Assembly (NCBI GenBank): GCA_945874145.1
Contig: CAMCFN010000004.1
Span: 5,407 to 69,406 of the forward strand
Direction: 5' to 3'
Source of the DNA: Akkermansia muciniphila
Lineage (GTDB): Bacteria > Verrucomicrobiota > Verrucomicrobiia > Limisphaerales > SXTU01
Length of the DNA: 64,000 nt
Shown here in pieces: positions 27,285-41,697 of this stretch. Each line of letters starts with the position of its first letter. Within the stretch, counting starts at the first letter, position 1. The notes beneath the pieces were generated by a model, which was given only the letters and a program-made list of their open reading frames with translations, did not search any database and had not been told where the DNA came from. The translations under genes and the position numbers were made by a program.

Positions 27285-27489
27285 GGCCTGCCACAACCGG
27301 CTGTCGCATTTCTATGAAAAACCCGTTGCTGAAATGCAGCCACACCGGAAGAGGCGACCTGCCTGAAGCTCGGCATCAACCCGATCCATGAACCACCGCG
27401 CCGCTGAACGGTGTGCTTGAAAACGCCCGATGATGAATCGCCGGGCCGTGCCTATTCCACGAATGCCTTTCCGTTCCTCATCACCCACC

Positions 27490-28650
27490 ATGAAACCACT
27501 GCCTCTCCTCATCGCCACCCTCCTGTTCGCCGCCACACTGTCGGTCCAGGCCGCCTCGCCGCTCACGTCCGCCATCGAAGCCGCGCTCACCAGGGAGATC
27601 GCCGCCCACCACGCCGCCGGCGTCGTCACGCTCGTGATGCAGGACGGCAAGGTGATTCATCACGCTGCCACCGGACTCGCTGACCGCGACCAAAAGCTCC
27701 CGATGAAGGCCGATTCACTTTTCTGGATCGCCTCCATGACCAAGTCCGTGGCCGTCACCACGATCATGACGCTCGTGGACGAGGGCAAGCTCTCGCTCGA
27801 CGTTCCCGCGTCGCAGTGGCTGCCCGAGCTGGGCAAGGTCAAGCTCGCCAGCGGGCAGCCGCCCGCCCGCGCCATCACACTGCGTGACCTGCTGTCGCAC
27901 ACGGCGGGCATCGCGTTTCCGCCGCGCAAGTCCACCGATGGAGCGCACTCCCTCAAGGGCTACGTGGCGGAGTTGCTGCGCGCGCCCCTCGCCTTCGAGC
28001 CGGGTTCGGCCTACGAATACGGCTTTGGGATCACCGTCGCGGGCCGCATCGCGGAGCTGGTTTCCGGCAAGCCCTTTGAAGTGCTGATGCACGAGCGCGT
28101 CCTCGACCCGCTGGGCATGAAGGAGACCACGTTCCATCCCGACGCCCGCCAGCGCCCGCGCATCGCCCGCACTTACAAATCCGCCGAGGGCGGCGGCCTC
28201 GCACTGGCCAACAACGTCTTCGTCACGTCCGACCCCGCCGTGCGGCGCATGGCCGAGCCCTCGGGCGGGCTGTTCTCCACGGCGGCGGACATGGCCAAGT
28301 TCTACCAGATGATTCTCAACGGCGGCGTGCATGAGGGGAAACGCATCGTGTCGGAAAAGGCCGTCGCCGAGATGACGCGCCCGCACAAGGCCGGCGGCAA
28401 GACTCTGAACTACGGTCTCGGCTGGCAGACCGGCAACGGCGAGAGGCCGGCCGTTCCTGGTTTTTCCAAAACCGCCTTCGGCCACGGCGGCGCGTTCGCC
28501 ACGCACGGGTTCATTGATCCCGAGCGCAAACTGGTCACGGTGTTCATGGTGCAGAACGTCTTGGTGACCGGCAGCGGCGATGCGCGCAAGGCCTTCCATG
28601 ATGAAGTCAACCGCGCGCTGAAAAGCGGCGAAACAAGCTCGGCCCAGTGA
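27490..28650 (+). CDS. serine hydrolase, beta-lactamase (class C/PBP4-like) family
   Basis: Signal peptide MKPLPLLIATLLFAATLSVQA. S-x-x-K motif ASMTKSV, YEYGFG, HGGAF (KTG-equivalent region). The track ORF opens at 27430. Confidence 0.85.
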   Translation: MKPLPLLIATLLFAATLSVQAASPLTSAIEAALTREIAAHHAAGVVTLVMQDGKVIHHAATGLADRDQKLPMKADSLFWIASMTKSVAVTTIMTLVDEGKLSLDVPASQWLPELGKVKLASGQPPARAITLRDLLSHTAGIAFPPRKSTDGAHSLKGYVAELLRAPLAFEPGSAYEYGFGITVAGRIAELVSGKPFEVLMHERVLDPLGMKETTFHPDARQRPRIARTYKSAEGGGLALANNVFVTSDPAVRRMAEPSGGLFSTAADMAKFYQMILNGGVHEGKRIVSEKAVAEMTRPHKAGGKTLNYGLGWQTGNGERPAVPGFSKTAFGHGGAFATHGFIDPERKLVTVFMVQNVLVTGSGDARKAFHDEVNRALKSGETSSAQ

Positions 28651-31469
28651 ACTCACTCAAAGCCAGCCCAACCTTCCGCCAAGGTCCAGCGGCCATCTGG
28701 CCGCGCCTGTTCGCTGTGCTCTGCTTGGTTGGAGCAACGGGGCTTCACGCTGCGGAAAACACTTGGTGGTCGTATCAGCCCGTGGTCCGCCCCGCCTTGC
28801 CACCGGTGAAAAGTTCCACCTGGGTCCGCAACGACCTCGACCGCTTCATTCTCGCCAAATTGGAGGCGAAGGGGCTCCAACCCTCACCCGAGGCCGACCC
28901 GCGCACTTTGATTCGCCGCCTCTATTTCGACCTCCTCGGCCTGCCCCCTACGCCTGAGGAAGTTGAAGCGTTCGTGCGCGAGTGTTCCCCAATCGGCAAT
29001 CGGCAATCGGCAATCGCCAATCTCATTGACCGTCTCCTCGCCAGCCCGCACTACGGCGAACGCTGGGCGCGTCACTGGCTCGACATCGCCCACTACGCCG
29101 ACACCCACGGCTTCGAGCGCGACCAGCTTCGCCCCAACGCCTGGCGCTACCGCGACTACGTCATCGCCTCGCTCAACGCCGACAAGCCTTACGACCAATT
29201 CCTTCGCGAGCAAATCGCTGGCGACGTCCTCCCCCCAGCCCCCAAGCGTCAGACCCCAGACGCCATCGCCCTCGGCTTCCTCGCCGCCGGCCCGTGGGAT
29301 TTCGTCGGTCAGGTCGAGACCAAGAGCGACGTGCTCAAGCGCGCCGCCCGCGCGGACGACCTCGACGACATGGTCACGCAAGTCCTCACCGCCTCGATGG
29401 GCGTGACCATCAATTGCGCCCGCTGCCACGACCATAAGCTCGACCCCATTTCGCAGCGCGAATACTACGGCCTCTGGGCGGTCTTCGCCGGCGTGAAGCG
29501 CGGCGACCGCGAGCTGGACCCCGCCGCCACCGCGCGTCGCGAGACCGAGCGCAAGCAGCTCCAGACGCGTCTCCGCGAAGTCTCCGCCGAGTTGGGCCGC
29601 CTCACCGGCGAGGGCCTCGACCTCGCGGACATGGTCGGCGGCGGCAATGGTCGCGGCACGGGCACCAAGGGCGCGGGCCTCGACCTCCGCACCGGCAACG
29701 TGGTGAAGGACAAGCTCGGCTACCACCGCGACATCCAGCTCAACCTCCTGCAAAAGCCCGAGTGGCCGGACGCGAACACGCCGAAGTTCGTCCAGTGGGT
29801 TTTTGTGCCGGACGGCAAGTCGCCCGTGCCCGTCGCGCCGCAAGTCACCGTCAGCCACCTGCCGCCCACGTCTGGCCACGCGTGGGACGCGATTCGTAAT
29901 GGCGCGCTGAACGCCCTAGTCTCCACCAAACTCGACGGCGTGGACTTCGCGGTGGCTGGCCACTCGCTCCTTGGCCTGCATGCCAACGCCGGCATCACCT
30001 TCAACCTCGCTGAGATTCGCAAGGCCAGCGGCTTCGCGAAACTCCGCTTCACCGCACAGGTCGGCTTCGGCGCAGGACCGACTGCCGCTGCGACTCGCGC
30101 GGACTTCTCCGTTTTCGCCGGCAAGGAGCTGCTCTTCCAGAAGCTCAAACTCCGCAAAGACGAGTCCGCCCGCGTGGACGTGGCACTCCCGGACGCCGCC
30201 GAGACGCTCACGCTCGTCGCGACCGACGGCGGGGACGGCATCGGCAACGACCTGCTCTTCCTCGGCGACGCGAAGCTCTCGCTGACCGTGGAGGCGCAGA
30301 GCCTCGCCGCCGCTGACCGCGCGCGTCTGGAGACGTTGCGCGCGGAGGAGAAGCAGTTGAACACCGCCCTGGCCGCGAAGGCCGACGGCGACAAAGTCTA
30401 TGCCATCACCAGCACCGAGCCGCCCGTGGTAAAAGTCCTCCGCCGTGGCAACCCCGAGGACGCGCAGGAGGAAGTCGCGCCCGGTGTCCTCAGTTGCGTG
30501 AAGCACGCCGCCGCCGATTTCGCGCGCGCCAAGACCGAGGGCGAGCGCCGCCTCGCATTGGCCGAGTGGATTACGCATCCCGCAAACCCGCTCACCCGCC
30601 GCGTGCTCGTGAACCGCCTGTGGCACCACCACTTCGGCGTCGGTCTCGTGGACACGCCCAGCGACTTCGGCAAAGGCGGCGGCGCACCGTCGCACCCGGA
30701 GTTACTCGATTGGCTGGCGGAGGAATTCCTCGCGCGCGGCTGGTCGCTGAAGGCGATGCACCGGGTGATTTGCACGTCAGCGGCGTATCGGCAGAGTTCA
30801 GCGTTCAGTAATCAGTATTCAGTAAGCAGTGGGGGAAGCGCCAGTGTGCCGCGGAGCACCGGTCCCCCACTGAACACTGAACACTGGAAACTGAACACTG
30901 CCGCCGCCCAACACCTCGACGCCTCGAACCGCCTCCTCTGGCGTCAAAACCCCCGCCGCCTCGACGCCGAGTCCACGCGTGACGCCGTGCTTGCCGTCAG
31001 CGGCAAGCTGAACCTCACCGCCGGCGGCCCCGGCTACCGCGACTTCAAATACACCGAGGCCTACGCGCCCATCTACGACTACGTCACCGCCGACACGCCG
31101 GAGCTGTGGCGGCGCAGCATCTACCGCTTCGTCGTGCGCACCACGCCGCACACGTTCATGACCACGCTCGACTGTCCGAACCCCGCGAACCTCACGCCCG
31201 CCCGCACCGCCACCACCACCGCGCTGCAAGCCCTCGCGCTCTCGAACAACGAGTTCATCCTCCAGCAAGCCCGCCATTTCGCCGCCCGCGTGGAGCGCGA
31301 GGCGGGCGCGGACGCCGCCGCCCAAATAAACCGTGCCTTCCACCTCGCGTTCCCCCGTCCGCCCGGCTTGGCGGAACTGGCCGCCGCGCGTGACCTTGTC
31401 CGCACCGACGGCGTCTTTTCCCTGTGCCGCATGCTGCTCAACGCCAACGAATTTGTGTATGTGGATTGA
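28647..31469 (+). CDS. DUF1549/DUF1553 (PSD1-type) protein with NPCBM-like central module
   Basis: GTG start in a GTGA overlap with the upstream gene. [65 protein letters not shown]. The central segment ...[22 protein letters not shown] resembles NPCBM-type carbohydrate-binding modules. Confidence 0.85.
28991..29022 (+). repeat. in-frame heptanucleotide tandem array (AATCGGC)x3 + AATCGCC + AATC inside the CDS
   Basis: Read directly: aatcggc aatcggc aatcggc aatcgcc aatc. Encodes [10 protein letters not shown] just before the [11 protein letters not shown] block. Confidence 0.7.
30797..30900 (+). repeat. in-frame palindromic element: five TTCAGTN heptamers, 36-nt core, five NACTGAA heptamers
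   Basis: Left array at 30797-30831 and right array at 30868-30900. Perfect 10-bp stem CAGTGGGGGA/TCCCCCACTG plus 19/27 further pairs. AT-rich relative to the gene. Amounts to 87 extra nt compared with the paralog at 56804-56825. Confidence 0.75.
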
Positions 31470-31484
31470 GCCAGGCTCCTACTC

Positions 31485-32888
31485 ATGAAACCACTTTTGA
31501 ACCTCGCCTTCGCGGTGCTGCTGCTGGCCGCTTCCCCCGCCCTGACTGCCGCGCAGCCCAACCTCATCCTCTTCCTCGCCGATGACCTTGGCTACGGCGA
31601 TCTCGCATGCTTCGGCCACCCCATCATCAAGACGCCGAACCTCGACGCGTTCGCGAAGCAGGGCGTGCGGCTGACGCAGTGTTACTCGGCGAGCGCGGTG
31701 TGCAGTCCGTCGCGCTCGGCGCTGCTCACGGGGCGCACGCCGCATCGGAACGGCGTTTACACCTGGATTGCCGAGGGCGCGCCGGTGCATCTGCGCACGA
31801 GCGAAATCACGTTGCCCAAACTGCTCAAGAGCGCGGGCTACGCGACCTGTCACAGCGGCAAGTGGCACTTGAACGGCCTGTTCAACAACCCCGCCCAGCC
31901 GCAGCCCGGCGACCACGGTTACGACTGGTGGATGGCCACGCAGAACAACGCCGGGCCGTCGCACGAGAACCCGAGCAACTTCGTCCGCAATGGCCAGGCG
32001 GTCGGGCGGCTTGAAGGCTACTCCGCACCGCTCGTCGTCAGCGAAGCCGTGACGTGGCTGAAGGAAAAGCGCGACCCCGCGAAGCCGTTCTTCCTCGCGG
32101 TGTGGACGCACGAGCCGCACTACCCGATTAAGTCTGACCCGAAGTTCAAGGCGCTCTACCCCGACCTCGCCGACGACGTGCAGCGTGAGCATCACGCGAA
32201 CGTCACCCAGATGGACTTCGCCTTCGGCCAGCTCATGAAGGCGCTCGACGAGCAGAAGCTCGCGGACAGCACGTTCGTGTTCTTCACGTCGGACAACGGC
32301 CCGGAAGGCGATGGCATCAAGTCGCCGGGGCGCGGCTCCAGCGGCGGCTTGCGCGACCGCAAACGCTCGATGCACGAGGGCGGCATCCGCGTGCCGGGGA
32401 TCGCGCGCTGGCCCGGCAAAATCCCCGCCGGCATGACGAGCGAAGTGCCCGTCATCGGCAGCGATGTGTTCCCCACGATGCTCGGCATCGCCGGCGTTAA
32501 ACCGCCCACCGACCGCGTGCTCGACGGCGTGGATGTGTTGCCCGTGGTCACCGGCAAAGCGACGAAGGTGGAGCGTCCGCAGCCGCTCTTCTGGCGCTTG
32601 CACATGGCCCCGAACGCCAAAATCGCGATGCGTGTGGACGACTGGAAGATTCTCGCCAATGCCGAACTGACCGAGTTCGAGCTCTACAATCTCAAGACCG
32701 ACCCGAAGGAAGCCACCGACCTCAAGTCCGCCGAGCCGCAACGCTTCGCCGCGTTGCGCGAACAACTCGTGAAGCACAACGCCGCCGTGGATGCCGACGG
32801 GCCGGACTGGTGGAAAACTCTCAGCCCGAACGGCGGCAAAGCGAAGTCCGACGAGCCGCCCGCGAAGAAGAAGGGGAAGAAGAATTAG
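31485..32888 (+). CDS. Cys-type sulfatase
   Basis: NLILFLADDLGYGDL. Signature VCSPSRSALLTGRT. Signal peptide present. Confidence 0.9.
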   Translation: MKPLLNLAFAVLLLAASPALTAAQPNLILFLADDLGYGDLACFGHPIIKTPNLDAFAKQGVRLTQCYSASAVCSPSRSALLTGRTPHRNGVYTWIAEGAPVHLRTSEITLPKLLKSAGYATCHSGKWHLNGLFNNPAQPQPGDHGYDWWMATQNNAGPSHENPSNFVRNGQAVGRLEGYSAPLVVSEAVTWLKEKRDPAKPFFLAVWTHEPHYPIKSDPKFKALYPDLADDVQREHHANVTQMDFAFGQLMKALDEQKLADSTFVFFTSDNGPEGDGIKSPGRGSSGGLRDRKRSMHEGGIRVPGIARWPGKIPAGMTSEVPVIGSDVFPTMLGIAGVKPPTDRVLDGVDVLPVVTGKATKVERPQPLFWRLHMAPNAKIAMRVDDWKILANAELTEFELYNLKTDPKEATDLKSAEPQRFAALREQLVKHNAAVDADGPDWWKTLSPNGGKAKSDEPPAKKKGKKN

Positions 32889-32900
32889 CATCACAACAGG

Positions 32901-35372
32901 GTGAAAAACTATCTGGTCCTTCTGGCCGCCTTGCTGACGGCAACCTCAACCGCCCTGCGCGCCGCCGACTTGGTGCTGGTGGACAAGGCAGTTGCCCGGG
33001 CGGAAATCGTGGTCGCGGAGACGCGCCCGCGCATGGTCTCGCTGGCGGCACTCGAACTGCGGCACTTCGTCCACAAGATGAGCGGCGCGCGCTTGCCCAT
33101 CGTCACCCAACCCACGGCGGCGGTGCCGATGAAGATTCACATCGGGCGGAGCGCGGAGACGGACCGGCTGGGCGTCACGAGCGACGGGCTGCGCGATGGC
33201 GCGTATCGCATCGCCTCGGGGCCGGACTGGCTGGTGCTCATCGGGGAGGACCGGGACTTCAGCCCCGGCAAGATGCCGTGGCCGGTGAAGCGCAACGACG
33301 CGCCGCGCGCCGAGGCGGAGTGGACCAAGGCGACAGCGGGGAAGACCGACACGGTCTGGGGCTTTCCGTTCGCCGCCGGGTTCAAGGCGTTCTGGAATCC
33401 CGCTGATTTCACCACGCAGATGTCCACGCGCTATGGGGCGGACTTTCCCGCGCTCTGGTCGGCTGGCGCGACAGGGAGAGCCGGATTCTGGAACCACGAC
33501 ACCGGCGGCTCGCTCAACGCCACCTACGCCCTGCTGCGGCATCTGGGCGTGCGCTGGTTCATGCCCGGCGAACTCGGCGAAGTGGCGCCGAAGCAAACCA
33601 GTCTCGTGGTGCGGTCGCTCAAAGAGACCGTGGTGCCTGACTTTCCGGTGCGCGACTGGGGCTGGTATAACTTCAGCGGCTTCGACTACGAGGACATCAT
33701 CTGGGCGCGGCGGCTGGGCATGAACTCCTGTTACGAGCGGCTCGGCCCGGCCAAAGGCCCGCACGGCATGGTGCCAGTGATGTCCGAGCCGGCCATGAAG
33801 GCGAAGCACCCGGAATACTACGCGCTTATCGGCGGCCAGCGCGACACGGGGCATCGCGATGGCGGCACGCCGTGCTTCACTTCCACCGGGCTGGAGGGGG
33901 AGACCGTCCGCTATCTTCGCTTCCTCTTCGACAGTTACGACCTCCCCAGCGCGGACATCTGGCCCGTGGACGGGCTGCGGACTTGTCAGTGCGAGCAGTG
34001 CGCGGGCAAGTCCGCATCGGAACTGGTCTGGGGCTTCGCCGACCGCGTGGCGCAGCAGATTTACCAAAGCCATCCGGCCAAGCGCGTCACTTGCGGCGCT
34101 TACACGAGCTACGTCGAGCCGCCGAACAACATCGCAAAGTTCAGCCCAAATTTGGGCGTGTGGATTTCCAACTGTGGCCGGCCCAAGATGACGGACCCGG
34201 AGCACTGGTCGGACTACCTGACGCGCATCCAGCGGTGGCAGGCGAAAATCGCGCCAGGCAACATCCTCCGCCTTGAAAACAACCGCTATCATATCTGGGG
34301 CGAGGGCGAACCCATCGCGTATCCCGTGCTGCATCCGCGCGGTGCTGCGCGCGACTTGAAAATGCTCAAGGGGCTTTCCCTCGGTGACACCGGCGAGCAA
34401 AGCCAGGTCGGCGGCAAATGGCGCGTCCCCGCGCTGGAGCACATCACGCTCTATGTCCAGTCGCGCTTCCTCTGGGATTCGGCCCAAGACGTGGACGCGG
34501 TGCTCGACGAGTATTGCCGCCTGTTCTACGGCCCCGCTGCGAAGCAGATGCTTGAGGCCATCACCTACGCGGAGCAGAACCTCGCTTTCAAAGACCAAAG
34601 CCGCCGCGGACGCGGCAACCCGGCCAGCGTTTCCCTCGCCGTCAGCCTCCGACTCCGCGAGTTGTTGGCAGCAGCGCGCAGCGTCGCCGGTGACAGCGTT
34701 TACGGCCGGAGAGTTCAGGCCGTCCTCGCCGAACTTCAGCCCAAGGAGCAGCTCATCGCCAAGCGCCGCGAGCAGGACGAAGCTCTCGCGCAGGCGCGCG
34801 CCAAGGCGCCGGTGGCGAAGGGGGTCCAAGGCGCGGACTTTGCGCAGGCGGTCGTCTACTCGTTGAAGGACAACCGGACGCCCGCGAAGCCCGCCGCGCA
34901 AACCACCTTCCGCGTCGCTTGGGAGAAGGACGCCATCCTCTTCGACATCGTCTGCCAGGAGTCGGACATCAAGAGCCTGCGTGTCAGCAGCGACGTTTAC
35001 AGCGGTGACAACGTGGTCATCTCGCTCGAAACCCCGCTGCATTCCTACTACCACCTCGAAATCAGCCCGGTGGGCATCGTCGCCGAGGGCAATCCGGGGC
35101 CAAACTGGAAAGCCTTGGCCGACGTGAAAGTCGAGCGCGGCCTCGACTCCTGGCGCGTGCGCGTGCGCATCCCGGTGGTCGGCGAAGCCGAGGCGCAATC
35201 TGACCCGCGTCACCGGGTCGCCGGCCAGAAGCCAACGACGCAGGCACCGTGGTATTTCAACGTGGGACGCCAGCGTGTGCTCGACCTCAAGAAGGCCGAG
35301 TTGCAGGCGTTCTCCCCGACGAAAGCCGGTTGGCACCTGCCGGAGAAGTTCGGGAAGCTGGTGATTGATTAG
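32901..35372 (+). CDS. DUF4838-like glycoside-hydrolase-associated protein with C-terminal CBM9-like domain
   Basis: GTG start 12 nt after the sulfatase stop, with a signal peptide. The N-terminal pattern LVLVDKAVARAEIVV...AALELRHFVHKMSGARLPIV is typical of DUF4838 proteins. C-terminal TFRVAWEKDAILFDIVC...ISLETPLHSYYHLEISP is CBM9-like. The family call is from memory only. Confidence 0.6.
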   Translation: MKNYLVLLAALLTATSTALRAADLVLVDKAVARAEIVVAETRPRMVSLAALELRHFVHKMSGARLPIVTQPTAAVPMKIHIGRSAETDRLGVTSDGLRDGAYRIASGPDWLVLIGEDRDFSPGKMPWPVKRNDAPRAEAEWTKATAGKTDTVWGFPFAAGFKAFWNPADFTTQMSTRYGADFPALWSAGATGRAGFWNHDTGGSLNATYALLRHLGVRWFMPGELGEVAPKQTSLVVRSLKETVVPDFPVRDWGWYNFSGFDYEDIIWARRLGMNSCYERLGPAKGPHGMVPVMSEPAMKAKHPEYYALIGGQRDTGHRDGGTPCFTSTGLEGETVRYLRFLFDSYDLPSADIWPVDGLRTCQCEQCAGKSASELVWGFADRVAQQIYQSHPAKRVTCGAYTSYVEPPNNIAKFSPNLGVWISNCGRPKMTDPEHWSDYLTRIQRWQAKIAPGNILRLENNRYHIWGEGEPIAYPVLHPRGAARDLKMLKGLSLGDTGEQSQVGGKWRVPALEHITLYVQSRFLWDSAQDVDAVLDEYCRLFYGPAAKQMLEAITYAEQNLAFKDQSRRGRGNPASVSLAVSLRLRELLAAARSVAGDSVYGRRVQAVLAELQPKEQLIAKRREQDEALAQARAKAPVAKGVQGADFAQAVVYSLKDNRTPAKPAAQTTFRVAWEKDAILFDIVCQESDIKSLRVSSDVYSGDNVVISLETPLHSYYHLEISPVGIVAEGNPGPNWKALADVKVERGLDSWRVRVRIPVVGEAEAQSDPRHRVAGQKPTTQAPWYFNVGRQRVLDLKKAELQAFSPTKAGWHLPEKFGKLVID

Positions 35373-35474
35373 GTCGCAACGCATTCCAATGAATATAGCT
35401 TTCGCGTTAATTCCGCCGACCACGGCTGCAACAGCGGACCACGGGTTTGGCATTTTGGTATGCGTCAACAATTC

Positions 35475-36998
35475 ATGAAAAAACTCCTGCTCACTCTGTT
35501 GGTCGCTGGCTCCTTTGCCACCGCATTCGCTGCCGCGCCTGCCCAGCCCAACATCGTCATCATGCTCGTGGATGACATGGGCGTGATGGACACCTCGGTG
35601 CCGTTTCTTACGGACGAGGCGGGCAAGCCGAAGCGGTATCCGCTCAACGATTACTACCGCACGCCAAGTATGGAGCGGCTCGCAGCCCGTGGCATTCGCT
35701 TCAACAACTTCTACGCCATGAGCGTGTGCTCGCCCACGCGCATCTCCATCATGACCGGCCAGAACGCGGCGCGGCATCGCACGACGAACTGGATCAACCC
35801 CGACAACAACAACGCCGGCCCAAGCGGCCCGTCGCAGTGGAACTGGCGTGGCCTGAAGCAGGGCGACGTGACGTTGCCCCGCCTCCTGCAGGCGAACGGC
35901 TACCGCACCATCCACGTCGGCAAGGGTCACTTTGGCCCGCGCGACTCCGACGGCGCAGACCCGCGCAACTTGGGCTTCGACATCAATGCCGGCGGAGCGT
36001 CTATCGGCGCGCCAGCAAGCTACTACGGCACGCAGGATTTCGGTCTCAAGACGAAGAATGCAAAAGCCGGCGTGCGCGGCCTGGAGAAGTATCACGGTCA
36101 GGAAATCTTCCTCACCGAGGCGCTCACACTCGAAGCCAACACGCACGTCGCCGACGCGGTGAAGGCCGACAAACCATTCTTCCTCTACTTCGCGCAATAC
36201 GCCGTCCACGCACCGTTCAACTCCGACTCACGCTTCGCCGCGCACTACGCAAACTCCGGGAAACCCGCGAACGCGCAGGCCTTCGCCACGCTCATCGAGG
36301 GCATGGACAAGTCGCTTGGCGATGTGCTGAACCAGCTCGAAAAGTTAGGCGTCGCGGAGAACACGCTGTTTGTCTTCCTCGGTGACAACGGCTCCGACGC
36401 GCCGCTTGGGCACCAGCACGAGGTTGCCTGTGCCGCGCCGTTGCGCGGGAAGAAAGGCTCGCACTACGAAGGCGGCGTGCGCGTGCCGTTCATCGCCGCG
36501 TGGGCCAAGCCGGATGCGAACAACGCCTTCCAGAAACGCCTGCCCATCGCCGCCGGATCCATCCAGAGCCAGCAGGCCGCCGTCTATGACATGTTCCCCA
36601 CCCTCCTCGCGCTCACCGGCAAGCCCGCTCCGGCGAACCACGTCGTTGACGGTGCGCGCCTCGACACGCTGCTCACCGGCAAGCGCGATGCGAGCCGCGA
36701 AGAATCGTTCCTCATGCACTACCCCCACTCGCCGCACCGCACCGACTACTTCACCACCTACCGCAACGGCGATTGGAAAGTCATCTACCACTACTTCCCG
36801 GGCGAGGTGTCCGAGAGCTCCCACTACCAGCTCTTCAACCTAAAGGCCGACCCGTTCGAGCAGAAGAACCTCGCCACGACTGAACCGACCCAGCTCAAGC
36901 GATTGATGCAGGGCCTCGCCGCTGGCTTGGAGAAACAAGCCGCCGTGTATCCGGTGGACAAGGGGACGAAGCTCGCGCTGAAGCCGAAGTTGCCATGA
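35475..36998 (+). CDS. Cys-type sulfatase
   Basis: Signal peptide MKKLLLTLLVAGSFATAFA. NIVIMLVDDMG. Signature VCSPTRISIMTGQN. An alternative ATG lies at 35460. Confidence 0.9.
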   Translation: MKKLLLTLLVAGSFATAFAAAPAQPNIVIMLVDDMGVMDTSVPFLTDEAGKPKRYPLNDYYRTPSMERLAARGIRFNNFYAMSVCSPTRISIMTGQNAARHRTTNWINPDNNNAGPSGPSQWNWRGLKQGDVTLPRLLQANGYRTIHVGKGHFGPRDSDGADPRNLGFDINAGGASIGAPASYYGTQDFGLKTKNAKAGVRGLEKYHGQEIFLTEALTLEANTHVADAVKADKPFFLYFAQYAVHAPFNSDSRFAAHYANSGKPANAQAFATLIEGMDKSLGDVLNQLEKLGVAENTLFVFLGDNGSDAPLGHQHEVACAAPLRGKKGSHYEGGVRVPFIAAWAKPDANNAFQKRLPIAAGSIQSQQAAVYDMFPTLLALTGKPAPANHVVDGARLDTLLTGKRDASREESFLMHYPHSPHRTDYFTTYRNGDWKVIYHYFPGEVSESSHYQLFNLKADPFEQKNLATTEPTQLKRLMQGLAAGLEKQAAVYPVDKGTKLALKPKLP

Positions 36999-38485
36999 AC
37001 TCACCCTCCGCCTGCAATCTCCGCCAGCACTCCGCCTCCCGCCGGGACTTCCTCTGGCAACTCGGCGGCGGCCTCGGCGGCGTGGCGTTGACCGCGTTGC
37101 TTGCGGAGCAGGCTGCATGCGCCGCCGCCCAGACGCCAGACCCCATCCCCCATCCCCAAAACCCGCTCGCTCCCAAGCCCGCGCCACACCCCGCCCGCGC
37201 TCGCGCCGTCATCCAAATCTTCTGCCCCGGCGGCCTGAGCCATGTGGACTCGTGGGATTGGAAGCCGGAGCTGGCGAAGCGCACGGGCAAGCCGTTTGAC
37301 CCCACGGGCACGGTGCAATTCTTCGCGTCCAAGCCCGGCAACTGCCAAGGCAGCTATTGGCCGTTCCGCCAGCACGGGCAGTGCGGACGCTGGATGAGCG
37401 ACTTGTTCCCGCAGTTTGCCGCGTGCGTGGACGACGTCGCGTTCATCCACTCCATGCAGAGCAAGTCCGCGCTGCACGGTCCGGCGATGTTCATGGCCAA
37501 CAGCGGCTTCATCCTGCCCGGCTTTCCGAGCATGGGCGCGTGGGTCACCTACGGCCTCGGCAGCGAGAGCGAGAACCTCCCCGCGTTCGTCGTGCTGCCC
37601 GACCCGCGCGGCCTGCCGCCCGGCGGCGTCATCAACTGGGGTGCGGGCTTCCTCCCCGCCGTGCATCAAGGCACGCCGCTCAACACCGACCCCGAGCTCC
37701 CGCCCATCGCGGACCTGTTTCCGCCGAAGAACTTCGCCGGCATCACGCCGCAGGGCGAAGTGGCCGGGCGCAACTTTCTCCAAACCCTGAACCGTCAGCA
37801 CGCCGCAGCGCGCGCGGGCAACACGGAACTCGACGCCCGCATCGCCGCCTACGAGCTGGCCGCGCGGATGCAACTCAGCGCACCCGAAGTCACCGACCTG
37901 CGCGGCGAGAGCGACGCGACGAAGCAGCTCTACACCCTCGCCGATGAGGACATCGGGCCGTTCGGTCGCCAATGCCTGCTGGCGCGGCGGCTGGTCGAGC
38001 GCGGCGTGCGCTTCGTGCAGATTTTCTGCGGCGCGGAAAACACGGGCGCGAAGAAAATCCGTCCGAACTGGGACAGCCACGAAGACCTCGTCCGCGACCA
38101 CGGCTACTGGGGCCGCGTGCTGGACACCGGCGCGGCGGCGTTGCTTACGGACCTCAAGGCGCGCGGCCTGCTCGACTCGACGCTCGTCATTTGCACGTCG
38201 GAGTTCGGTCGCCAGCCCGGCGCGCAGGGCAAGGGCCGCGACCACAACGCCGGCGCGTTCACCGCGTGGCTTGCGGGCGGCGGCATCAAGGGCGGCACGG
38301 CTTACGGCACGACGGATGAACTCGGTTCCAAGGCCGAGGAGCACCCCGCATACAGCTACGACCTCCACGCCACCGCGTTGCACCAGCTCGGCGTGGACCA
38401 CGAGCGCCTGAGCTTTTACCACAACGGCGTCCAACGCCGCCTCACCGACGTGCATGGGCATGTCGTTCGGGAGATTTTGGCGTGA
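36995..38485 (+). CDS. DUF1501 family protein with twin-arginine leader
   Basis: ATGA overlap with the sulfatase stop. SRRDFLWQLGGGLGGVALTALLA. SEFGRQPGAQGKGRDHN. Confidence 0.85.
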   Translation: MNSPSACNLRQHSASRRDFLWQLGGGLGGVALTALLAEQAACAAAQTPDPIPHPQNPLAPKPAPHPARARAVIQIFCPGGLSHVDSWDWKPELAKRTGKPFDPTGTVQFFASKPGNCQGSYWPFRQHGQCGRWMSDLFPQFAACVDDVAFIHSMQSKSALHGPAMFMANSGFILPGFPSMGAWVTYGLGSESENLPAFVVLPDPRGLPPGGVINWGAGFLPAVHQGTPLNTDPELPPIADLFPPKNFAGITPQGEVAGRNFLQTLNRQHAAARAGNTELDARIAAYELAARMQLSAPEVTDLRGESDATKQLYTLADEDIGPFGRQCLLARRLVERGVRFVQIFCGAENTGAKKIRPNWDSHEDLVRDHGYWGRVLDTGAAALLTDLKARGLLDSTLVICTSEFGRQPGAQGKGRDHNAGAFTAWLAGGGIKGGTAYGTTDELGSKAEEHPAYSYDLHATALHQLGVDHERLSFYHNGVQRRLTDVHGHVVREILA

Positions 38486-39036
38486 CCGACGCCTCTCCCC
38501 CATCGCTGCCGAAGCCTCCGCGAAAGCGGTTCCTGTCGGTTGCCGTTGCGGTTGTCGTGGCTGCGCTGGTGGGAGCCGCATTCGCATATCACTCACTCGG
38601 TTTGCGCGACCCCAACTACAACAAGTGGCGGCGGGAGTGGAAGGACGCCGCCCTTGCAGCGCTTGCCAAACAGGCTTCGGACGCCGCCTGGGTGGCGAAA
38701 GAAACTAGGGCGGTGAAAGCAAAGCTCGGAGCGCAGGGAGAAGATGATGGCGGTTGGTTCTCCAGCAACCTTCTCTTGATGAAGAATGGTGACTGGATTG
38801 CCTACGCCAGCCGGTGCAGCAAAGAGGATTGGCGCATCAGGGACATCTTCATTGGCCGTGCCACGGACGGAAAATGGTATTACTCCACCTTCCACTTTTG
38901 TTGTGGCATGTTGACGCTGCGAGTGGAAGACCGCCCGGAGAGCTTGGACAAATTTATCACCGCCTACTCGCTCCGCGAGTTTGATGGCCGCTCCGACGAG
39001 TGCCTGAAGAAAACTTGGCCGAATCCGACGCAATGA
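38482..39036 (+). CDS. hypothetical membrane-anchored protein (184 aa)
   Basis: GTG in a GTGA overlap with the DUF1501 stop. One TM, FLSVAVAVVVAALVGAAFAY. GC lower than its neighbours. No family recognised. Confidence 0.5.
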   Translation: MTDASPPSLPKPPRKRFLSVAVAVVVAALVGAAFAYHSLGLRDPNYNKWRREWKDAALAALAKQASDAAWVAKETRAVKAKLGAQGEDDGGWFSSNLLLMKNGDWIAYASRCSKEDWRIRDIFIGRATDGKWYYSTFHFCCGMLTLRVEDRPESLDKFITAYSLREFDGRSDECLKKTWPNPTQ

Positions 39037-40646
39037 AACCAACGCGCACACCAAAGTCCAACCGAGACCCCCGACAATTGGCTGCTTCCTCCCTCACCCT
39101 GGCCCTCTCCCGCTGGGAGAGGGAGAACGGCAGCCAGCGCGTCCGGCAATCGCGCGCGTTCGACTTCAGCCCGTTGCGGACTGCGTTTTCCCCTCTCCCA
39201 GCGGGAGAGGGCTGGGGTGAGGGAGAACAGCTCGAAGTCAGACAGTCGTCTCCCATAGCCGAAGGCCCCAACCATTCCACCCGCCGCCAGTTCGTCCAGG
39301 CGACGGCCACCGCCACAGCCTTCGCCTCCCTTGCCACTCCCGTCCTCGCGCAGCCCGCCGGCAAATCGCTCGGCTCCAAAACGCTCAAGACCGACGTGCT
39401 GGTCTGCGGTGGCGGCTGCGCGGGCATTGCCGCCGCGCTCGCGGCCGCGCGACGCAGCGCGAAGGTGATGCTCGTGGAGAAGGCGCCGTTCGCCGGCGGC
39501 ATCATTACGTGCGTCGGGCTGCCTTACTTCGATGGCATCGCGAACATCAAGGACAACCGCATCGTCGTGCGCGGCATCGCGCTGGAGCTGTTGTCCAAGT
39601 CCGGCGTGTGCAAGCCCGACGCCACGCACACGGCGAAGCACAACCCGACCATCGGCAATTCCTTCGAGTTCAAGCTGCTGCTCGACCGCCTCATCCGCGA
39701 GCAGCGCGACCGGATCACCGTGCTGTTCAACTCCTTCGTCTGCGGCGTGCAGAGCAACGGCGGACGCATCCGCTCCGTGCAAATCGCCAACAAGGACGGC
39801 CTCGTGAACGTCGAGGCGAACACGGTGATTGATTGCACCGGCGATGCCGATGTCGCCGCGTGGGCGGGCGCGCCCTTCGAGCAGAACGCCGAGGTGCAAC
39901 CGCTCACGCTGCACTTCCGCATCGGGAACGTGAAGCGCGTCGGCAACCTCAGCCAGAACTGCCGCGCCGCGCTCGCGAAGGCGCAGGCCGCCGGCGAGTT
40001 GCCCTTCTATTACGGTCCCGGCGTGATGTTCCTCTACCACGAGAGCGAGGTTTACATCCACGGCATCCGCGTGCCCGCGAACCCGACCGATGCCGCCGAC
40101 CTCTCGCGCGCCGAGATGCAGGGCCGCGCGGATGCGTGGGCGATGTTCCAAGCGTGGCGGCGCGAGGTTCCGGGCTTCGAGCAGAGCTACTTCATCGAGG
40201 CGTATCCGTGGATTGGCGTGCGCGAGTCGCGTCGGCTCATCGGCCAATACGTGCTGAACGAGGACGACCTGATGAAGGCCCGCCGCTTCGACGACGCCAT
40301 CGCCACCGGCTGCTGGTATCTCGACCTGCACCCGAACAAGACCGTCATCGGCAGCGCGAACGACTTCGACCCCAAGAAGGTTCAGCCCGAACCCTACGAC
40401 ATCCCGTATCGCTCGTTGCTGCCGCAGCAGATTGAAAACCTGCTCGTCGCCGGCCGCTGCCACTCCGCCACGCGCGGCGCGCACGCCTCGACCCGCGTGA
40501 CCGTCACCGCGATGGCGATGGGCGAAGCCGCCGGAACAGCGGCGGCGATGGCCGTCACCGCGAAGAAGTCGGCTCAGGAAATCGGGGGTGTGAAGGTCCG
40601 CGATGCGCTGAAAGCCAGCGGCGCAGGGCCGTTCACAGACGCATGA
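39033..40646 (+). CDS. FAD-dependent oxidoreductase (PF12831-like) with a distal Tat motif; start uncertain
   Basis: Dinucleotide-binding motif DVLVCGGGCAGIAAALAAARR, with Tat-like STRRQFVQATATATAFASL upstream of it. The only in-frame ATG/GTG upstream of the RR motif are 39033 (ATGA overlap with the previous gene) and 39000. The intervening codons contain a repeat pair. Confidence 0.8.
   Translation: MKPTRTPKSNRDPRQLAASSLTLALSRWERENGSQRVRQSRAFDFSPLRTAFSPLPAGEGWGEGEQLEVRQSSPIAEGPNHSTRRQFVQATATATAFASLATPVLAQPAGKSLGSKTLKTDVLVCGGGCAGIAAALAAARRSAKVMLVEKAPFAGGIITCVGLPYFDGIANIKDNRIVVRGIALELLSKSGVCKPDATHTAKHNPTIGNSFEFKLLLDRLIREQRDRITVLFNSFVCGVQSNGGRIRSVQIANKDGLVNVEANTVIDCTGDADVAAWAGAPFEQNAEVQPLTLHFRIGNVKRVGNLSQNCRAALAKAQAAGELPFYYGPGVMFLYHESEVYIHGIRVPANPTDAADLSRAEMQGRADAWAMFQAWRREVPGFEQSYFIEAYPWIGVRESRRLIGQYVLNEDDLMKARRFDDAIATGCWYLDLHPNKTVIGSANDFDPKKVQPEPYDIPYRSLLPQQIENLLVAGRCHSATRGAHASTRVTVTAMAMGEAAGTAAAMAVTAKKSAQEIGGVKVRDALKASGAGPFTDA
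39089..39225. repeat. inverted pair of 35-nt REP-like hairpin repeats (34/36 identical) separated by 67 nt, embedded in the 5' coding region
   Basis: Copy 1 at 39089-39123: CTCCCTCACCCTGGCCCTCTCCCGCTGGGAGAGGG. Copy 2 at 39191-39225 is its reverse complement. Each contains a perfect 9-bp stem CCCTCTCCC/GGGAGAGGG. Confidence 0.75.
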
Positions 40647-41655: not shown

Positions 41656-41662
41656 GGCGTGG

Positions 41663-41697
41663 GAGTTGAGAGATGAAGGTTGAGAGTTGAGAGGCAC
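41663..41697. repeat. heptanucleotide array (GAGTTGA-like x4-5; TCAACTC on the coding strand) in the 45-nt DUF1501-WD40 spacer
   Basis: Read directly: gagttga gagatga aggttga gagttga gaggcac. Confidence 0.6.

Follow-up and report, generated by a model that had tools for sequence, protein, structure and literature searches.

Glycan-enzyme genes recurrently occupy the junction of a conserved DUF1549/DUF1553 and DUF1501 gene pair in several bacterial lineages

Introduction

Modules combining PSCyt1, PSCyt2 and PSD1 domains with a DUF1501 protein are found in Planctomycetes, Verrucomicrobia, and Lentisphaerae (Kamneva et al. 2012, PMC3542564); the PSCyt/PSD domains received their names in Rhodopirellula baltica. 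In the 64 kb stretch of DNA analysed here (the window), whose host is a freshwater, Limisphaerales-like verrucomicrobium, the large (DUF1549-NPCBM-DUF1553) and small (DUF1501) partners of one such pair are separated by 5.5 kb of DNA that holds three enzyme genes. The locus raises the question of whether these enzymes tell us something about the role of the pair or simply landed at its junction. An earlier note on this DNA had taken the arrangement as a hint of a PUL-like role in sulfated-glycan processing.

Gene order and junctions

The gene order and domain content given in the earlier note were confirmed by Pfam matches and direct reading of the sequence (Table 1). The unit is co-directional, running from a serine hydrolase gene through those for the large partner, sulfatase 1, a DUF4838 protein, sulfatase 2, DUF1501, and a 184-aa protein to that for an FAD oxidoreductase. 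The overlaps and gaps it listed were also borne out: overlaps of GTGA at 28647, ATGA at 36995, GTGA at 38482, and ATGA at 39033, and gaps of 15 nt before sulfatase 1, 12 nt before the DUF4838 gene, and 87 nt before sulfatase 2 (102 nt with the ATG 35475 start of public gene calls). Consensus scans of the sequence gave no convincing terminator or promoter within the unit, and the spacing would be consistent with co-transcription across it.

Table 1. Features of the locus and other relevant genes of the window
Feature	Position	Strand	Evidence
Formylglycine-generating-enzyme domain protein	11454-13757
Upstream PSCyt1-PSD3-PSD5-PSD4-PSCyt3-PSD2 protein	23320-25914	+	Pfam
Upstream DUF1552 protein	25920-27284	+	Pfam; TAT motif RRTFL
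Class C beta-lactamase/family VIII esterase-like serine hydrolase	27430/27490-28650	+	Pfam PF00144 1.9e-73
Large partner	28647-31469	+	Pfam PSCyt2/DUF1549 7e-82, NPCBM 2.8e-9, PSD1/DUF1553 5e-86
Sulfatase 1	31485-32888	+	Pfam Sulfatase 7.5e-59 and SGSH_C; motif CSPSR
DUF4838 protein	32901-35372	+	Pfam PF16126 2.5e-26, residues 224-551
Sulfatase 2	35460-36998 (alternative start ATG 35475)	+	Pfam Sulfatase 1.5e-47; motif CSPTR
Small partner (DUF1501)	36995-38485	+	Pfam PF07394 1.7e-135
184-aa protein	38482-39036	+	One N-terminal hydrophobic helix
REP-like inverted repeat	39089-39225		50-nt arms, 37-nt loop, 84% complementary
FAD-dependent oxidoreductase	39033-40646	+	Pfam PF12831 6.2e-101
WD40 gene	40654-41697	-	Convergent, after oxidoreductase
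Second split pair, DUF1501	41701-43002	-
Second split pair, large partner	44702-47182	-
First adjacent pair	215-2746/2753-4138
Second adjacent pair	50458-53214/53221-54651

The beta-lactamase-family gene, proposed as the start of the unit, is not a conserved part of it: in relatives it is missing upstream of the large partner, except for a 36% homolog in L042. This hydrolase likely starts at ATG 27490, with the signal peptide MKPLPLLIATLLFAATLSVQA (public gene calls give 386 aa), and NCBIfam yielded only sub-threshold matches, the best to an AcmB-like methyl acetate hydrolase. The PSCyt1/DUF1552 genes 145-205 nt before it form the other PVC pair type, and a longer co-directional cluster beginning near 19279 may include them.

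At the other end, the ATGA junction at 39033 is doubtful. A very stable REP-like hairpin (predicted RNA fold -115.2 kcal/mol, z = -8.9) lies inside the reading frame extension from this ATG, upstream of the TAT motif T-R-R-Q-F-V-Q-A (residues 83-90 of the long reading frame), and in the sister loci L067 and L088, which lack the element, the gene starts MKTTTSRGTTRRQFVQA; ATG 39033 is thus probably not the real start. The element recurs at the equivalent site in L017 and L014, with another copy in the unrelated locus L083. No close solved or named relative of the oxidoreductase was found, and neither Pfam nor NCBIfam gave a match for the 184-aa protein. Homologs of the latter (54-90%) follow DUF1501 in L012, L014, L017, L094-L097, L099, L103, and L106, and the gene is absent from L013, L067, L088, and L100. 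With or without it, oxidoreductase orthologs (84-93%) follow DUF1501 in L013, L014, L017, L067, L088, L094, L095, L099-L101, L103, and L106; in L096 and L097 the match is just a 74% fragment covering 20% of the query.

The two partners

The large partner carries a Sec signal peptide and, as previously claimed, an NPCBM-like central module. The Pfam match covers residues 442-544 of a CBM51-like module spanning about 340-550, which also matches CBM51 (2vmg/2vmh) in sequence (E 1e-3) and CBM51 in fold (27% identity, target-normalised TM 0.69). Public gene calls differ on its start, giving 940 or 895 aa, and we favour 28647 because the shorter protein would lack both the signal peptide and a conserved stretch, ENTWWSYQ; the C-terminal tail NANEFVYVD is conserved as well. 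A CxxCH motif in PSCyt2 (C257-A-R-C260-H261) occupies invariant columns of a 40-sequence alignment, is kept in 5/5 window paralogs, and is a putative c-type haem site. Orthologs at 60-67% identity bear an additional N-terminal PSCyt1 cytochrome c domain, a haem domain that has been lost from the window's clade. The AlphaFold2 model reaches a pLDDT of 70, a moderate quality, and its confidence is low near CxxCH; no PDB matches were found for the helical PSCyt2 and PSD1 parts.

The small partner carries the TAT motif SRRDFL and aligns with sulfatases (hhalign probability 92.8%, E 4e-7, 93 columns), with a weak match to the GalNAc-6-sulfatase 7stt (E 0.004). Judged from these alignments, DUF1501 is a distant relative of the alkaline-phosphatase/sulfatase superfamily, and the formylglycine C/S-x-P-x-R motif is absent from its sequence. 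Its orthologs (64-95%) adjoin those of the large partner in most loci.

Elsewhere in the window, the earlier note had considered the partners to be adjacent, which is correct for two pairs but overlooks that another pair, on the minus strand, is split as well, by a PIN toxin-antitoxin module together with a gene of 263 aa. Pairs of the PSCyt1/DUF1552 type also flank orthologs of the large partner and DUF1501 in other loci (e.g. L013, L014, L024, L027, L039, L121, L124, L130, L157, and L169).

The nested enzymes

Each inserted enzyme carries an export signal by motif or signal peptide reading. Sulfatase 1 is an S1 formylglycine-type enzyme of the Cys type (C73-S-P-S-R) with a Sec signal peptide; among solved structures it is closest to the E. 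coli arylsulfatase 3ED4 (E 7e-83), and its orthologs (93-96%) occupy the equivalent position in L017, L068, L088, and L089. Sulfatase 2, also Cys-type (C90-S-P-T-R) and with a signal peptide, aligns over its full length with 7OZ9 (E 4.4e-186, 56% identity over 480 columns), which is BT3057 and, like 7OZA (BT3796), an S1_16 4S-Gal/GalNAc sulfatase structure. Residues equivalent to W109 and H423 are conserved, Ala stands in place of H182, and sulfatase 2 is likely, on this alignment, an S1_16-type 4-O-sulfo-Gal/GalNAc exo-sulfatase. Its orthologs (82-90%) are nested in the pair in L011, L017, L068, L088, and L094, and lie upstream of it in L010, L047, L064, L096, L100, and L102. The window also encodes a formylglycine-generating-enzyme domain protein.

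The DUF4838 protein comprises a signal peptide, an N-terminal GH20b/GH67N-like domain, a TIM barrel (224-551), a helical linker, and a C-terminal beta-sandwich (about 638-823). In Foldseek searches of the PDB, its AlphaFold2 model (pLDDT 89.6) matched GH115 (4c90) first, followed by GH67, GH84, and GH20, the last including the 6S-GlcNAc sulfoglycosidase BT4394. The suggestion that the protein is CBM9-like agrees with the match of its C-terminal domain to CBM9 1i82 (target-normalised TM 0.76) and 7nwn. It belongs to its own PVC-wide ortholog group and is nested between the partners only here and in one sister species among the 158 related loci; orthologs with 56-75% identity are found in other, unrelated gene neighbourhoods that have no such pair.

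Families GH163 and GH185 both have DUF4838 as their catalytic domain and are represented by BT1035, an endo-beta-N-acetylglucosaminidase acting on complex N-glycans, and Sp_0475, an exo 6-sulfo-beta-GlcNAcase (Bains et al. 2023, PMC10570127). The protein described here resembles both in its PF16126 domain on a TIM barrel, and Sp_0475 in having GH115 4C90 as best structural neighbour, with GH84 and GH20 also matching. It differs from both families in its N-terminal GH20b-like and C-terminal CBM9-like domains and its signal peptide. We infer a glycosidase-like protein of GH163/GH185 type, in which the GH185 catalytic residues could not be mapped; its position among sulfatases would fit a sulfated-hexosamine substrate.

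Distribution of split pairs and their cargo

Among 158 related loci from GTDB genomes and metagenomes, 98 orthologous pairs were informative from the DUF1501 side. The partners were adjacent in 70 of these and split in 28 (27 versus 12 in genomes, 43 versus 16 in metagenomes), and from the side of the large partner the GTDB genomes gave 24 adjacent and 12 split. The survey shows that the pair is ancestral and usually adjacent, and that genes for glycan enzymes turn up repeatedly at its junction in several lineages. In a neighbour-joining tree of the large partner, split states occupy at least four clades, with sulfatase cargo perhaps in three independent clades.

The cargo consists mostly of co-oriented, tightly packed glycan enzymes: sulfatases, GH28-like and GH5-like proteins, BNR_2, SASA esterases, and lectin-like proteins. 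Sulfatases occur with Laminin_G_3 and DUF1080-like proteins (L011, L012, L017, and L068), an ankyrin-repeat gene (L094 and L088/L089), a GH5-like gene (L012 and L098), or an esterase/GH28-like gene (L022), and an MBL-fold gene accompanies a sulfatase or nuclease in L045 and L123. Other slots hold GH28-like genes with or without a SASA esterase (L030, L031, L037, L107, L119, L133, and L155) or BNR_2 proteins (L061 and L127). The junction also harbours antisense ParE/Phd toxin-antitoxin genes (L023, L032, L109, L160, and L133), YhcG/DUF1016 nuclease genes (L068 and L123), and, in L051, a whole second pair.

In the genome set, slots contain 2.1 sulfatases per 10 kb versus 0.13 elsewhere in the loci (the background being the flanks in these genomes, over 1.1 Mb in total), an approximately 16-fold enrichment that is inflated by shared ancestry. 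Cargo is absent from around 70% of the orthologous pairs, and many pairs lack a sulfatase within 10 kb. With 28 of 98 pairs split and slots this dense in sulfatases, the arrangement is not unique to this genome, and the association with sulfatases put forward in the earlier note is present.

Comparison with known systems

The pair resembles the modules of Kamneva et al. in its large PSCyt2-PSD1 protein with a sugar-binding insert, its TAT-bearing DUF1501 partner, and the many paralogs per genome, and differs from them in the three enzyme genes that separate the partners and the missing PSCyt1. In freshwater Verrucomicrobia MAGs, a phylum and habitat type shared with this locus, He et al. 2017 (PMC5615132) found that PSCyt proteins carry CBMs, NPCBM included, and neighbour sulfatases, and proposed a periplasmic carbohydrate role for them. 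That account is qualitative, whereas in this locus the sulfatases sit between the two members of an orthologous pair, and reuse of the slot with different glycan enzymes is counted across several lineages.

As in Bacteroidota PULs for sulfated host glycans (for instance, in B. thetaiotaomicron with its S1_16 BT3057), co-oriented sulfatases, a glycosidase, and a carbohydrate-binding protein are encoded together. In contrast to PULs, the unit has by Pfam neither a SusC/SusD-type transporter pair nor a hybrid two-component or ECF regulator, the sulfatases are of the Cys rather than the Ser type, and the core consists of a cytochrome-like and a sulfatase-fold protein.

Periplasmic complexes of an FAD dehydrogenase, a small subunit, and a cytochrome c, such as glucoside 3-dehydrogenase and FAD-glucose dehydrogenase, offer another parallel, as the unit here likewise combines genes for a TAT flavoprotein, a small accessory protein, and a cytochrome-like protein of c type. 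The likeness is one of gene layout: the flavoprotein is PF12831 and not GMC family, the cytochrome-like protein has 940 aa and a CBM, and the linkage is found in one clade only.

Possible roles of the locus

We favour, with a probability of roughly 0.55, an operon for the periplasmic trimming of sulfated glycans that was built into the junction of the conserved pair. It would have arisen via insertion of enzyme genes between normally adjacent partners. The S1_16-like sulfatase, the GH163/GH185-type domain, and the CBM51-like module point to sulfated Gal/GalNAc/GlcNAc-type glycans. Oligosaccharides of this kind would enter the periplasm and be held by the CBM51-like module of the large partner, the two formylglycine sulfatases would remove sulfate, the DUF4838 enzyme would cut the hexosamine linkage, and the pair would perform one more, undefined step; our preferred guess is that DUF1501 acts as a metal-dependent ester hydrolase with the large partner as its substrate-recognition partner. 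Co-transcription, the substrates, and any physical or functional coupling of pair and cargo are to be read as our inference. The PUL-like role suggested earlier fares well in terms of cargo, sulfatase density, and enzyme identities, and less well in that these amount to an association in a unit with neither SusC/SusD nor a regulator. Sulfatases are, moreover, generally abundant in PVC genomes, which counts against this reading.

A less probable alternative is that the junction is a permissive insertion site, where cargo uses the promoter of the pair with no mechanistic link to it and sulfatases or CAZymes merely reflect genomes crowded with such genes, as in this window, whose 64 kb contain 3 sulfatases and 5 DUF1501 genes. 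Selfish or unrelated inserts (ParE/Phd, YhcG/DUF1016, the PIN module, and the second pair in L051) share the slot, some of them antisense, so the junction is permissive, its partners need not be strictly coupled, and nesting by itself is no proof of co-function. Cargo also varies even among near relatives, and is absent from the close relatives L013, L014, L092, and L093. Against this, slot sulfatases greatly exceed their density in the flanks of the same genomes, and the non-selfish cargo comes nearly entirely from glycan-related families in at least four clades. This cargo runs in the direction of the pair, its junctions overlap or are very short, and the DUF1501 ATG overlaps the stop of differing last genes as ATGA in the window, L011, L012, L017, L045, L030, and L031. 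The sulfatase 2 ortholog keeps its linkage to the pair through rearrangements, and the large partner has a carbohydrate-binding module of its own.

It is unlikely that the core is instead a periplasmic electron transfer system similar to the FAD dehydrogenase complexes above, in which the large cytochrome, DUF1501, the 184-aa protein, and the oxidoreductase would oxidise sugars or their derivatives prepared by the sulfatases and glycosidase: the invariant CxxCH, the PSCyt1 domain of the 60-67% orthologs, the order of these genes, conserved across over 10 loci in the closest clade, TAT signals typical of cofactor-containing periplasmic enzymes on DUF1501 and the oxidoreductase, 3-keto-disaccharide hydrolase (DUF1080)-like cargo in L011 (below the Pfam threshold in L017), and the suggestion of electron transport by Kamneva et al. 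(2012, PMC3542564) for the module speak for it, but haem binding is only predicted from CxxCH, PSCyt1 is lost in this clade, the kin of DUF1501 are hydrolases and not redox enzymes, the PF12831 protein lacks a close relative that is characterised, the hairpin sets its gene apart, and that gene is linked only in the closest clade (large partner at least 77% identical, plus L106, where it lies off the contig), with distant pairs having none within 10 kb except for a 35% fragment in L054.

Returning to the trimming operon, the association of sulfatases and CBMs with PSCyt proteins is known from He et al. (2017, PMC5615132). In the literature searched, the published account treats the pair as adjacent and does not describe cargo recurring at its junction; this recurrence appears to be new. 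The glycan genes found there offer a testable clue to the role of a very common pair.

Organization of the proposed operon

Pfam assigns the genes from the beta-lactamase-family hydrolase through the FAD oxidoreductase to the same families, in the same order, as the earlier note had read from the sequence, and between 27430 and 40646 every real gene lies on the plus strand. The junctions that it described are also present in order (GTGA, gaps of 15 nt, 12 nt and 87-102 nt, and then ATGA, GTGA and ATGA), although the last of these, at 39033, is doubtful as the start of the oxidoreductase, as the ORF that it opens crosses a repeat before reaching the twin-arginine (TAT) motif. Sec-type signal peptides are found in the hydrolase, in LARGE (the DUF1549/DUF1553 protein), in both sulfatases and in the DUF4838 protein, and the DUF1501 protein bears a TAT signal, SRRDFLWQLGGGLG. 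Compared with the PSCyt2/PSD1 plus DUF1501 module of PVC bacteria, the window has both proteins and the TAT signal, but the partners are separated: instead of being directly adjacent, LARGE and DUF1501 lie 5,525 nt apart with three genes in between. The co-directional gene run begins near 19279, its first genes encoding a BNR_2 protein and a GDSL esterase.

Features of the window, with the evidence for each assignment
Feature	Coordinates	Strand	Basis
Tyrosine recombinase, XerC/D-like	6199-7131
3-keto-disaccharide-hydrolase (DUF1080) protein	7150-7992
767-aa protein, C-terminal FGE-sulfatase domain	11454-13757	-
Third Cys-type-family sulfatase	14959-16302
PSCyt1/PSD/PSCyt3 protein and TAT-signal DUF1552 protein (other PVC pair type)	23320-27284	+	Pfam
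Serine hydrolase, beta-lactamase family	27430-28650	+	Pfam
LARGE, 940 aa, DUF1549(PSCyt2)-NPCBM-DUF1553(PSD1)	28647-31469	+	Pfam PSCyt2 7e-82, PSD1 5e-86, NPCBM 2.8e-9
Sulfatase 1	31485-32888	+	Pfam PF00884, E 7.5e-59
DUF4838 protein	32901-35372	+	Pfam PF16126, 93 bits (cut-off 26.6)
Sulfatase 2	35460-36998	+	Pfam PF00884, E 1.5e-47
DUF1501 protein	36995-38485	+	Pfam 1.7e-135
184-aa protein, no family	38482-39036	+	Pfam search
FAD oxidoreductase, PF12831 (ORF from ATG 39033)	39033-40646	+	Pfam
REP-like inverted repeat	39089-39225
DUF1501 of the minus-strand split pair	41701-43002	-
263-aa protein, family-less, in the minus-strand split pair	43048-43839
PIN-domain toxin, in the minus-strand split pair	44219-44641
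PSCyt1-PSCyt2-PSD1 gene (LARGE-type), PSD1 match truncated	44702-47182	-
Unpartnered DUF1501	47485-49122		Pfam
GDSL-like gene, longest ORF	48951-50438
Unpartnered LARGE with F5/8-type-C domain	54672-57395
3-keto-disaccharide-hydrolase (DUF1080) protein	59290-59883

The repeat in question is 137 nt long with 50-nt arms, has a folding energy of -115 kcal/mol (z = -8.9 against shuffles) and, within the ORF, encodes a 'SPLPAGEGWGEGE'-type peptide, as is typical for REP-like elements. The 184-aa gene precedes it, and the TAT motif of the oxidoreductase, TRRQFVQA, lies downstream of it. The same repeat occupies the same site in two of the related loci that we compared (designated by L-numbers), L017 (about 19386-19522) and L014 (about 9000-9130), and an additional copy is found in the unrelated locus L083 (274-294). 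It is absent from L067 and L088, in which the oxidoreductase begins with MKTTTSRGTTRRQFVQA straight after the previous gene. In the window, there is no canonical start codon between the repeat and the TAT motif, and thus any start assigned to the oxidoreductase is provisional.

The two adjacent pairs that the earlier note placed elsewhere in the window both stand, and a further pair, on the minus strand, is also split; it holds the family-less gene and a PIN toxin-antitoxin module, consisting of the toxin and a short antitoxin-like ORF, and is followed by a WD40 gene. Downstream of the pair in L067, the minus strand carries a DUF1501 of 30% identity and, around 1 kb from it, a LARGE-like fragment of 31%. 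The unpartnered DUF1501 ORF has its TAT motif at residue 64, which makes a later start probable, and its 3′ end overlaps the longest GDSL-like ORF by around 170 nt, such that both starts need revision. The two PVC pair types, PSCyt2/PSD1 with DUF1501 and PSCyt3/PSD2-5 with DUF1552, are repeatedly neighbours in varying orders, both in the window and in L013, L014, L024, L027, L039, L121, L124, L130, L157 and L169, which suggests a higher-order linkage of both systems.

The 64 kb have a G+C content of 62-69% and a set of genes of the kind typically found in PVC bacteria. The closest public relatives of LARGE are found in Verrucomicrobiota/Limisphaerales MAGs (81-86% identity), and freshwater-type metagenome scaffolds in ENA contain sequence identical to the window. 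Among the GTDB MAG contigs L012-L015, L018, L035, L062, L067 and L083, several are titled 'Akkermansia muciniphila', 'Klebsiella' or 'Proteobacteria' despite their high-GC PVC-type genes, probably through mislabelling of the records or mis-binning of the contigs.

The pair and its junction in related loci

The comparison covered 158 related loci, 78 from genomes, each with a relative of LARGE, and 80 from metagenomes, each with a relative of DUF1501, and the operon proteins were placed on all of them by tblastn. In most of them, the orthologs of LARGE (51-88% identity) and DUF1501 (64-95%) are immediate neighbours, with the LARGE stop 4-8 nt ahead of the DUF1501 ATG in the adjacent pairs. Seen from the LARGE side, 24 pairs in genomes are adjacent and 12 split; seen from the DUF1501 side, the corresponding numbers are 27 and 12 in genomes and 43 and 16 in metagenomes. 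On this second side, adjacency is found in 70 of the 98 informative loci, and the remaining pairs (around 29%) are split, with 0.6-7.9 kb between the partners. Splits are rarer among the paralogous pairs of these loci (7 of 43). Adjacency prevails and is probably also ancestral, and since the orthologs are mostly adjacent, the LARGE and DUF1501 genes that bracket the enzymes are true partners. The earlier note had allowed that the nesting could be unique to this genome, which is not so: splits recur among the 158 loci, and in a rough neighbour-joining tree of LARGE they fall in at least four clades, with the adjacent L013 and L014 interleaved with the split Limisphaerales group.

The contents of the split junctions were identified by Pfam searches of the ORFs lying between the partners. 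In the sister species, they are followed by DUF1501 (93%) and the FAD gene.

Genes inserted between the orthologs of LARGE and DUF1501 in related loci
Loci	Group	Inserted genes
L017	Limisphaerales group	Sulfatase 1 ortholog, Laminin_G_3, sulfatase 2 ortholog, weakly DUF1080-like protein
L068	Limisphaerales group	Sulfatase 1 ortholog, Laminin_G_3, sulfatase, sulfatase 2 ortholog, YhcG nuclease
L011	Limisphaerales group	Laminin_G_3, three sulfatases, DUF1080-like proteins
L012, L098	Limisphaerales group	Sulfatase and GH5-like protein
L094	Limisphaerales group	Ankyrin-repeat gene, sulfatase 2 ortholog, sulfatase
L088/L089	Sister species	Ankyrin-repeat gene, sulfatase 1 (93-96%), DUF4838 (90%), sulfatase 2 (90%), extra sulfatase
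L030, L031, L037, L107, L119, L133, L155	Verrucomicrobiaceae/Prosthecobacter-type	GH28-like beta-helix proteins, with or without SASA acetylesterase
L022	Verrucomicrobiaceae/Prosthecobacter-type	Sulfatase and esterase/GH28-like fusion
L061, L127	Verrucomicrobiaceae/Prosthecobacter-type	FGE-BNR_2 or BNR_2 proteins
L045, L123	Verrucomicrobiaceae/Prosthecobacter-type	Sulfatase or nuclease, and MBL-fold protein
L158	Verrucomicrobiaceae/Prosthecobacter-type	GH5-like protein

The inserted genes are tightly packed and on the same strand as the pair, and seven different configurations show the stop of the last inserted gene, whichever this is, overlapping with the ATG of DUF1501. In the genome loci, sulfatase genes amount to 2.1 per 10 kb in the junctions and 0.13 per 10 kb elsewhere, a ratio that is inflated by shared ancestry, with perhaps three independent sulfatase acquisitions. 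Orthologs of sulfatase 2 (82-90%) are found beside the pair in many genomes, either nested or upstream of LARGE; for instance, they are upstream of an adjacent pair in L010, L047, L064, L096/97, L100/110 and L102/105. Other inserts are of different kinds and speak against a purely functional reading: antisense ParE/Phd modules (L023, L032, L109, L160 and L133), YhcG-type nuclease genes, a prenyltransferase-like protein (L104) and, in L051 (10001-18208), a pair within the pair, where a complete paralogous LARGE and DUF1501 come between a LARGE ortholog (53%) and the orthologous DUF1501 (66%).

The toxin-antitoxin and nuclease inserts are what one would expect if the junction were a permissive site gathering whatever abounds in these genomes, but we consider this explanation unlikely, given the sulfatase enrichment, the orientation of the inserts, their coupling to DUF1501 and the persistent linkage of sulfatase 2. 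That the junction has been reused lineage by lineage for glycan enzymes, with junctions of the translational-coupling type, argues that the pair acts in the same process as these enzymes.

The nested enzymes

Both nested sulfatases match PF00884 over the full-length domain and contain Cys-type formylglycine motifs (CSPSR at residue 73 in sulfatase 1 and CSPTR at residue 90 in sulfatase 2), and both are part of an alignment of 14 sequences in which the metal-site residues, D38 and D39 towards the N-terminus and D309 and N310 towards the C-terminus (sulfatase 2 numbering), do not vary. The candidate formylglycine-generating enzyme (FGE) in the window is the 767-aa protein, whose FGE-sulfatase domain family also covers non-FGE proteins. 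The closest solved relative of sulfatase 1 is an uncharacterised E. coli arylsulfatase (3ED4). Sulfatase 2 matches PDB 7OZ9 over its full length (E 4.4e-186, 56% identity over 480 columns); next come 7OZA, 9s8f, 6uss and 9fo1, the last a kappa-carrageenan sulfatase of S1_16. Two S1_16 proteins, BT3057 and BT3796, both of which are exo 4S-Gal/GalNAc sulfatases, have their structures in 7OZ9 and 7OZA, and W109 of BT3057 is a critical stacking residue that its authors linked to this activity. Assuming that 7OZ9 is BT3057 and that the numbering is offset by one residue, sulfatase 2 appears to keep W109 (TNWIN) and H423 (PHR) and to have Ala in place of H182. Thus, it is a reasonable inference from the alignment that sulfatase 2 would act on 4-O-sulfo-Gal/GalNAc.

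The DUF4838 protein has more than 100 full-length orthologs across the PVC phyla. DUF4838 is the catalytic domain of GH163, which are endo-beta-GlcNAc-ases acting on complex N-glycans, and of GH185, which are exo 6-sulfo-beta-GlcNAc-ases (PMC10570127). In a model with a pLDDT of 89.6, the (beta/alpha)8 barrel of the protein resembles GH115, GH67, GH84 and GH20 enzymes by Foldseek (E 1e-11 to 1e-5), with the 6S-GlcNAc sulfoglycosidase BT4394 among its structural relatives, and its C-terminal domain is predicted to be CBM9-like. The GH115 structure 4C90 is the top structural neighbour of both this protein and the GH185 founder Sp_0475, whose catalytic residues are Q174, H227, D309 and Y436 and which binds sulfate through R633 (PMC10570127). 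The barrel residues H288, H303, E334, D357, Y401 and Y439 of the DUF4838 protein are invariant and are candidate catalytic residues only. The barrel region of the orthologs also presents a near-invariant four-cysteine cluster, C...CxCxxC (C325, C362, C364 and C367), which is possibly a structural metal site. A second, independent association of DUF4838 with the pair is found in L123, from a Verrucomicrobiaceae-type metagenome, in which a DUF4838-like gene (12534-14342, 37% identical to that of the window) follows shortly after the orthologous DUF1501, the junction itself holding a YhcG nuclease and an MBL-fold protein.

The proteins of the pair

The central module of LARGE is CBM51-like by both sequence (2vmg/2vmh, E 1e-3, in addition to the Pfam NPCBM match) and predicted fold (Foldseek against 2vmi, E 1.2e-5, 27% identity, rmsd 3.1), making it a putative sugar binder; the ligands of characterised CBM51s, according to PDB entry titles, are galactose, blood-group antigens or GlcNAc, and 2vmg itself is a galactose complex. 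No solved structure matched the helical parts, PSCyt2 and PSD1. LARGE is an exported protein in which a haem site can be predicted from a CxxCH motif: the PSCyt2 motif around C257-x-x-C260-H261 is invariant across its orthologs, and C-x-x-C-H is kept in all five paralogs of the window. The model of LARGE is moderately confident as a whole, with a pLDDT below 50 around residues 257-265. In orthologs with 60-67% identity (Prosthecobacter and Chthoniobacteraceae), a mono-haem cytochrome c domain, PSCyt1, is added at the N-terminus, whereas the window's own clade (77-100%) lacks it, and thus this domain has been lost or gained inside one ortholog group. All five DUF1553 proteins of the window share an aromatic C-terminal tail (NEFVYVD, AEFRFKH, TEFRFNH, NDFLFVN and NEFAFVD), which is encoded at 31434-31469 in LARGE and kept to the last residue in its orthologs; the tail could be a docking or sorting signal.

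DUF1501 is detectably related, at the level of sequence, to the alkaline phosphatase/sulfatase superfamily, as hhalign aligns it with the sulfatase core (probability 92.8%, E 4e-7, just 93 columns in the C-terminal half) and phmmer matches it to 7stt (E 0.004). The C/S-x-P/A-x-R formylglycine motif was not found in its sequence, and where sulfatases have their 'DN' metal ligands, the aligned residues are 'EF', of which E403 is invariant. We infer that its invariant acidic and histidine residues (D88, D360-x-H362, E403 and D416-H417) would suit a metal site. Our favoured guess is that DUF1501 could be a metal-dependent ester hydrolase guided by a sugar-binding, haem-containing LARGE. More doubtful than the permissive site is the proposal that the core works together with the FAD oxidoreductase as a redox system, for which the sulfatases merely prepare the substrate: the CxxCH of LARGE, the PSCyt1 domain of its orthologs and the conserved order DUF1501-(184 aa)-FAD would fit it, but this last linkage is essentially limited to the closest clade and DUF1501 resembles a hydrolase.

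Interpretation and significance

The reading that we prefer, with a probability of roughly 0.55, is that the operon serves the periplasmic trimming of sulfated Gal/GalNAc/GlcNAc-type glycans, and that it would have arisen by the entry of enzyme genes into the LARGE/DUF1501 junction of a conserved pair that has a putative sugar binder as its large member. A PUL-like mode of action was suggested in the earlier note, and the likeness holds for the co-localization of glycan enzymes with a binding protein: as in Bacteroidota-type PULs, two sulfatases, a GH-like DUF4838 enzyme and CBM51-like and CBM9-like modules are co-oriented. The unit is not a Bacteroidota-type PUL, as the SusC/SusD pair and the regulator are absent from it; indeed, the Pfam families of SusC-like TonB-dependent transporters and SusD-like lipoproteins were found in none of the called genes of the window.

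The families, their pairing, their CBMs and the sulfatase neighbourhood are already published. Kamneva et al. described the module in 2012 and guessed at electron transport (PMC3542564), and He et al. in 2017 reported PSCyt proteins with CBMs, NPCBM included, and sulfatase genes nearby, predicted that these proteins reside in the periplasm or cytoplasm, and proposed a role in carbohydrate metabolism for them (PMC5615132). What is apparently new is that the partners of one orthologous pair have repeatedly been separated by glycan-enzyme genes integrated into the operon, here an S1_16-like sulfatase and a GH163/GH185-type enzyme. A broader proposal, which we regard as improbable, is that PVC bacteria possess a periplasmic glycan-processing system of their own, with the PSCyt2-PSD1/DUF1501 pairs, of which a PVC genome has dozens, as its modular core. 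Here, the interchangeable CBM of LARGE would set the substrate, its haem and histidine-rich conserved sites would act jointly with the TAT-exported, sulfatase-fold partner in a non-canonical step, and the junction would be a cassette slot for translationally coupled lineage-specific enzymes; the step could be a redox-assisted or metal-dependent removal of esters, or the cleavage of a linkage out of reach of the usual glycoside hydrolases and S1 sulfatases.

In Planctomycetes and Verrucomicrobia, the DUF1549/DUF1553 and DUF1501 families rank among the largest; they were first described around twenty years ago, and in the literature searched, neither has been assigned a function since. The repeated presence of glycan-active genes in the junction of one orthologous pair is a stronger form of guilt by association than mere neighbourhood, and several modules of the window have specificities that can be named (the S1_16-like sulfatase, the GH163/GH185-type domain and the CBM51-like module). 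These indicate 4-O-sulfated Gal/GalNAc and sulfated hexosamine linkages as candidate substrates, and the Prosthecobacter versions point to acidic or O-acetylated sugars. If the pair does serve the turnover of sulfated glycans, this would change the counts of carbohydrate-degrading capacity in abundant freshwater and soil PVC bacteria, which at present rest on glycoside hydrolase and sulfatase genes only.
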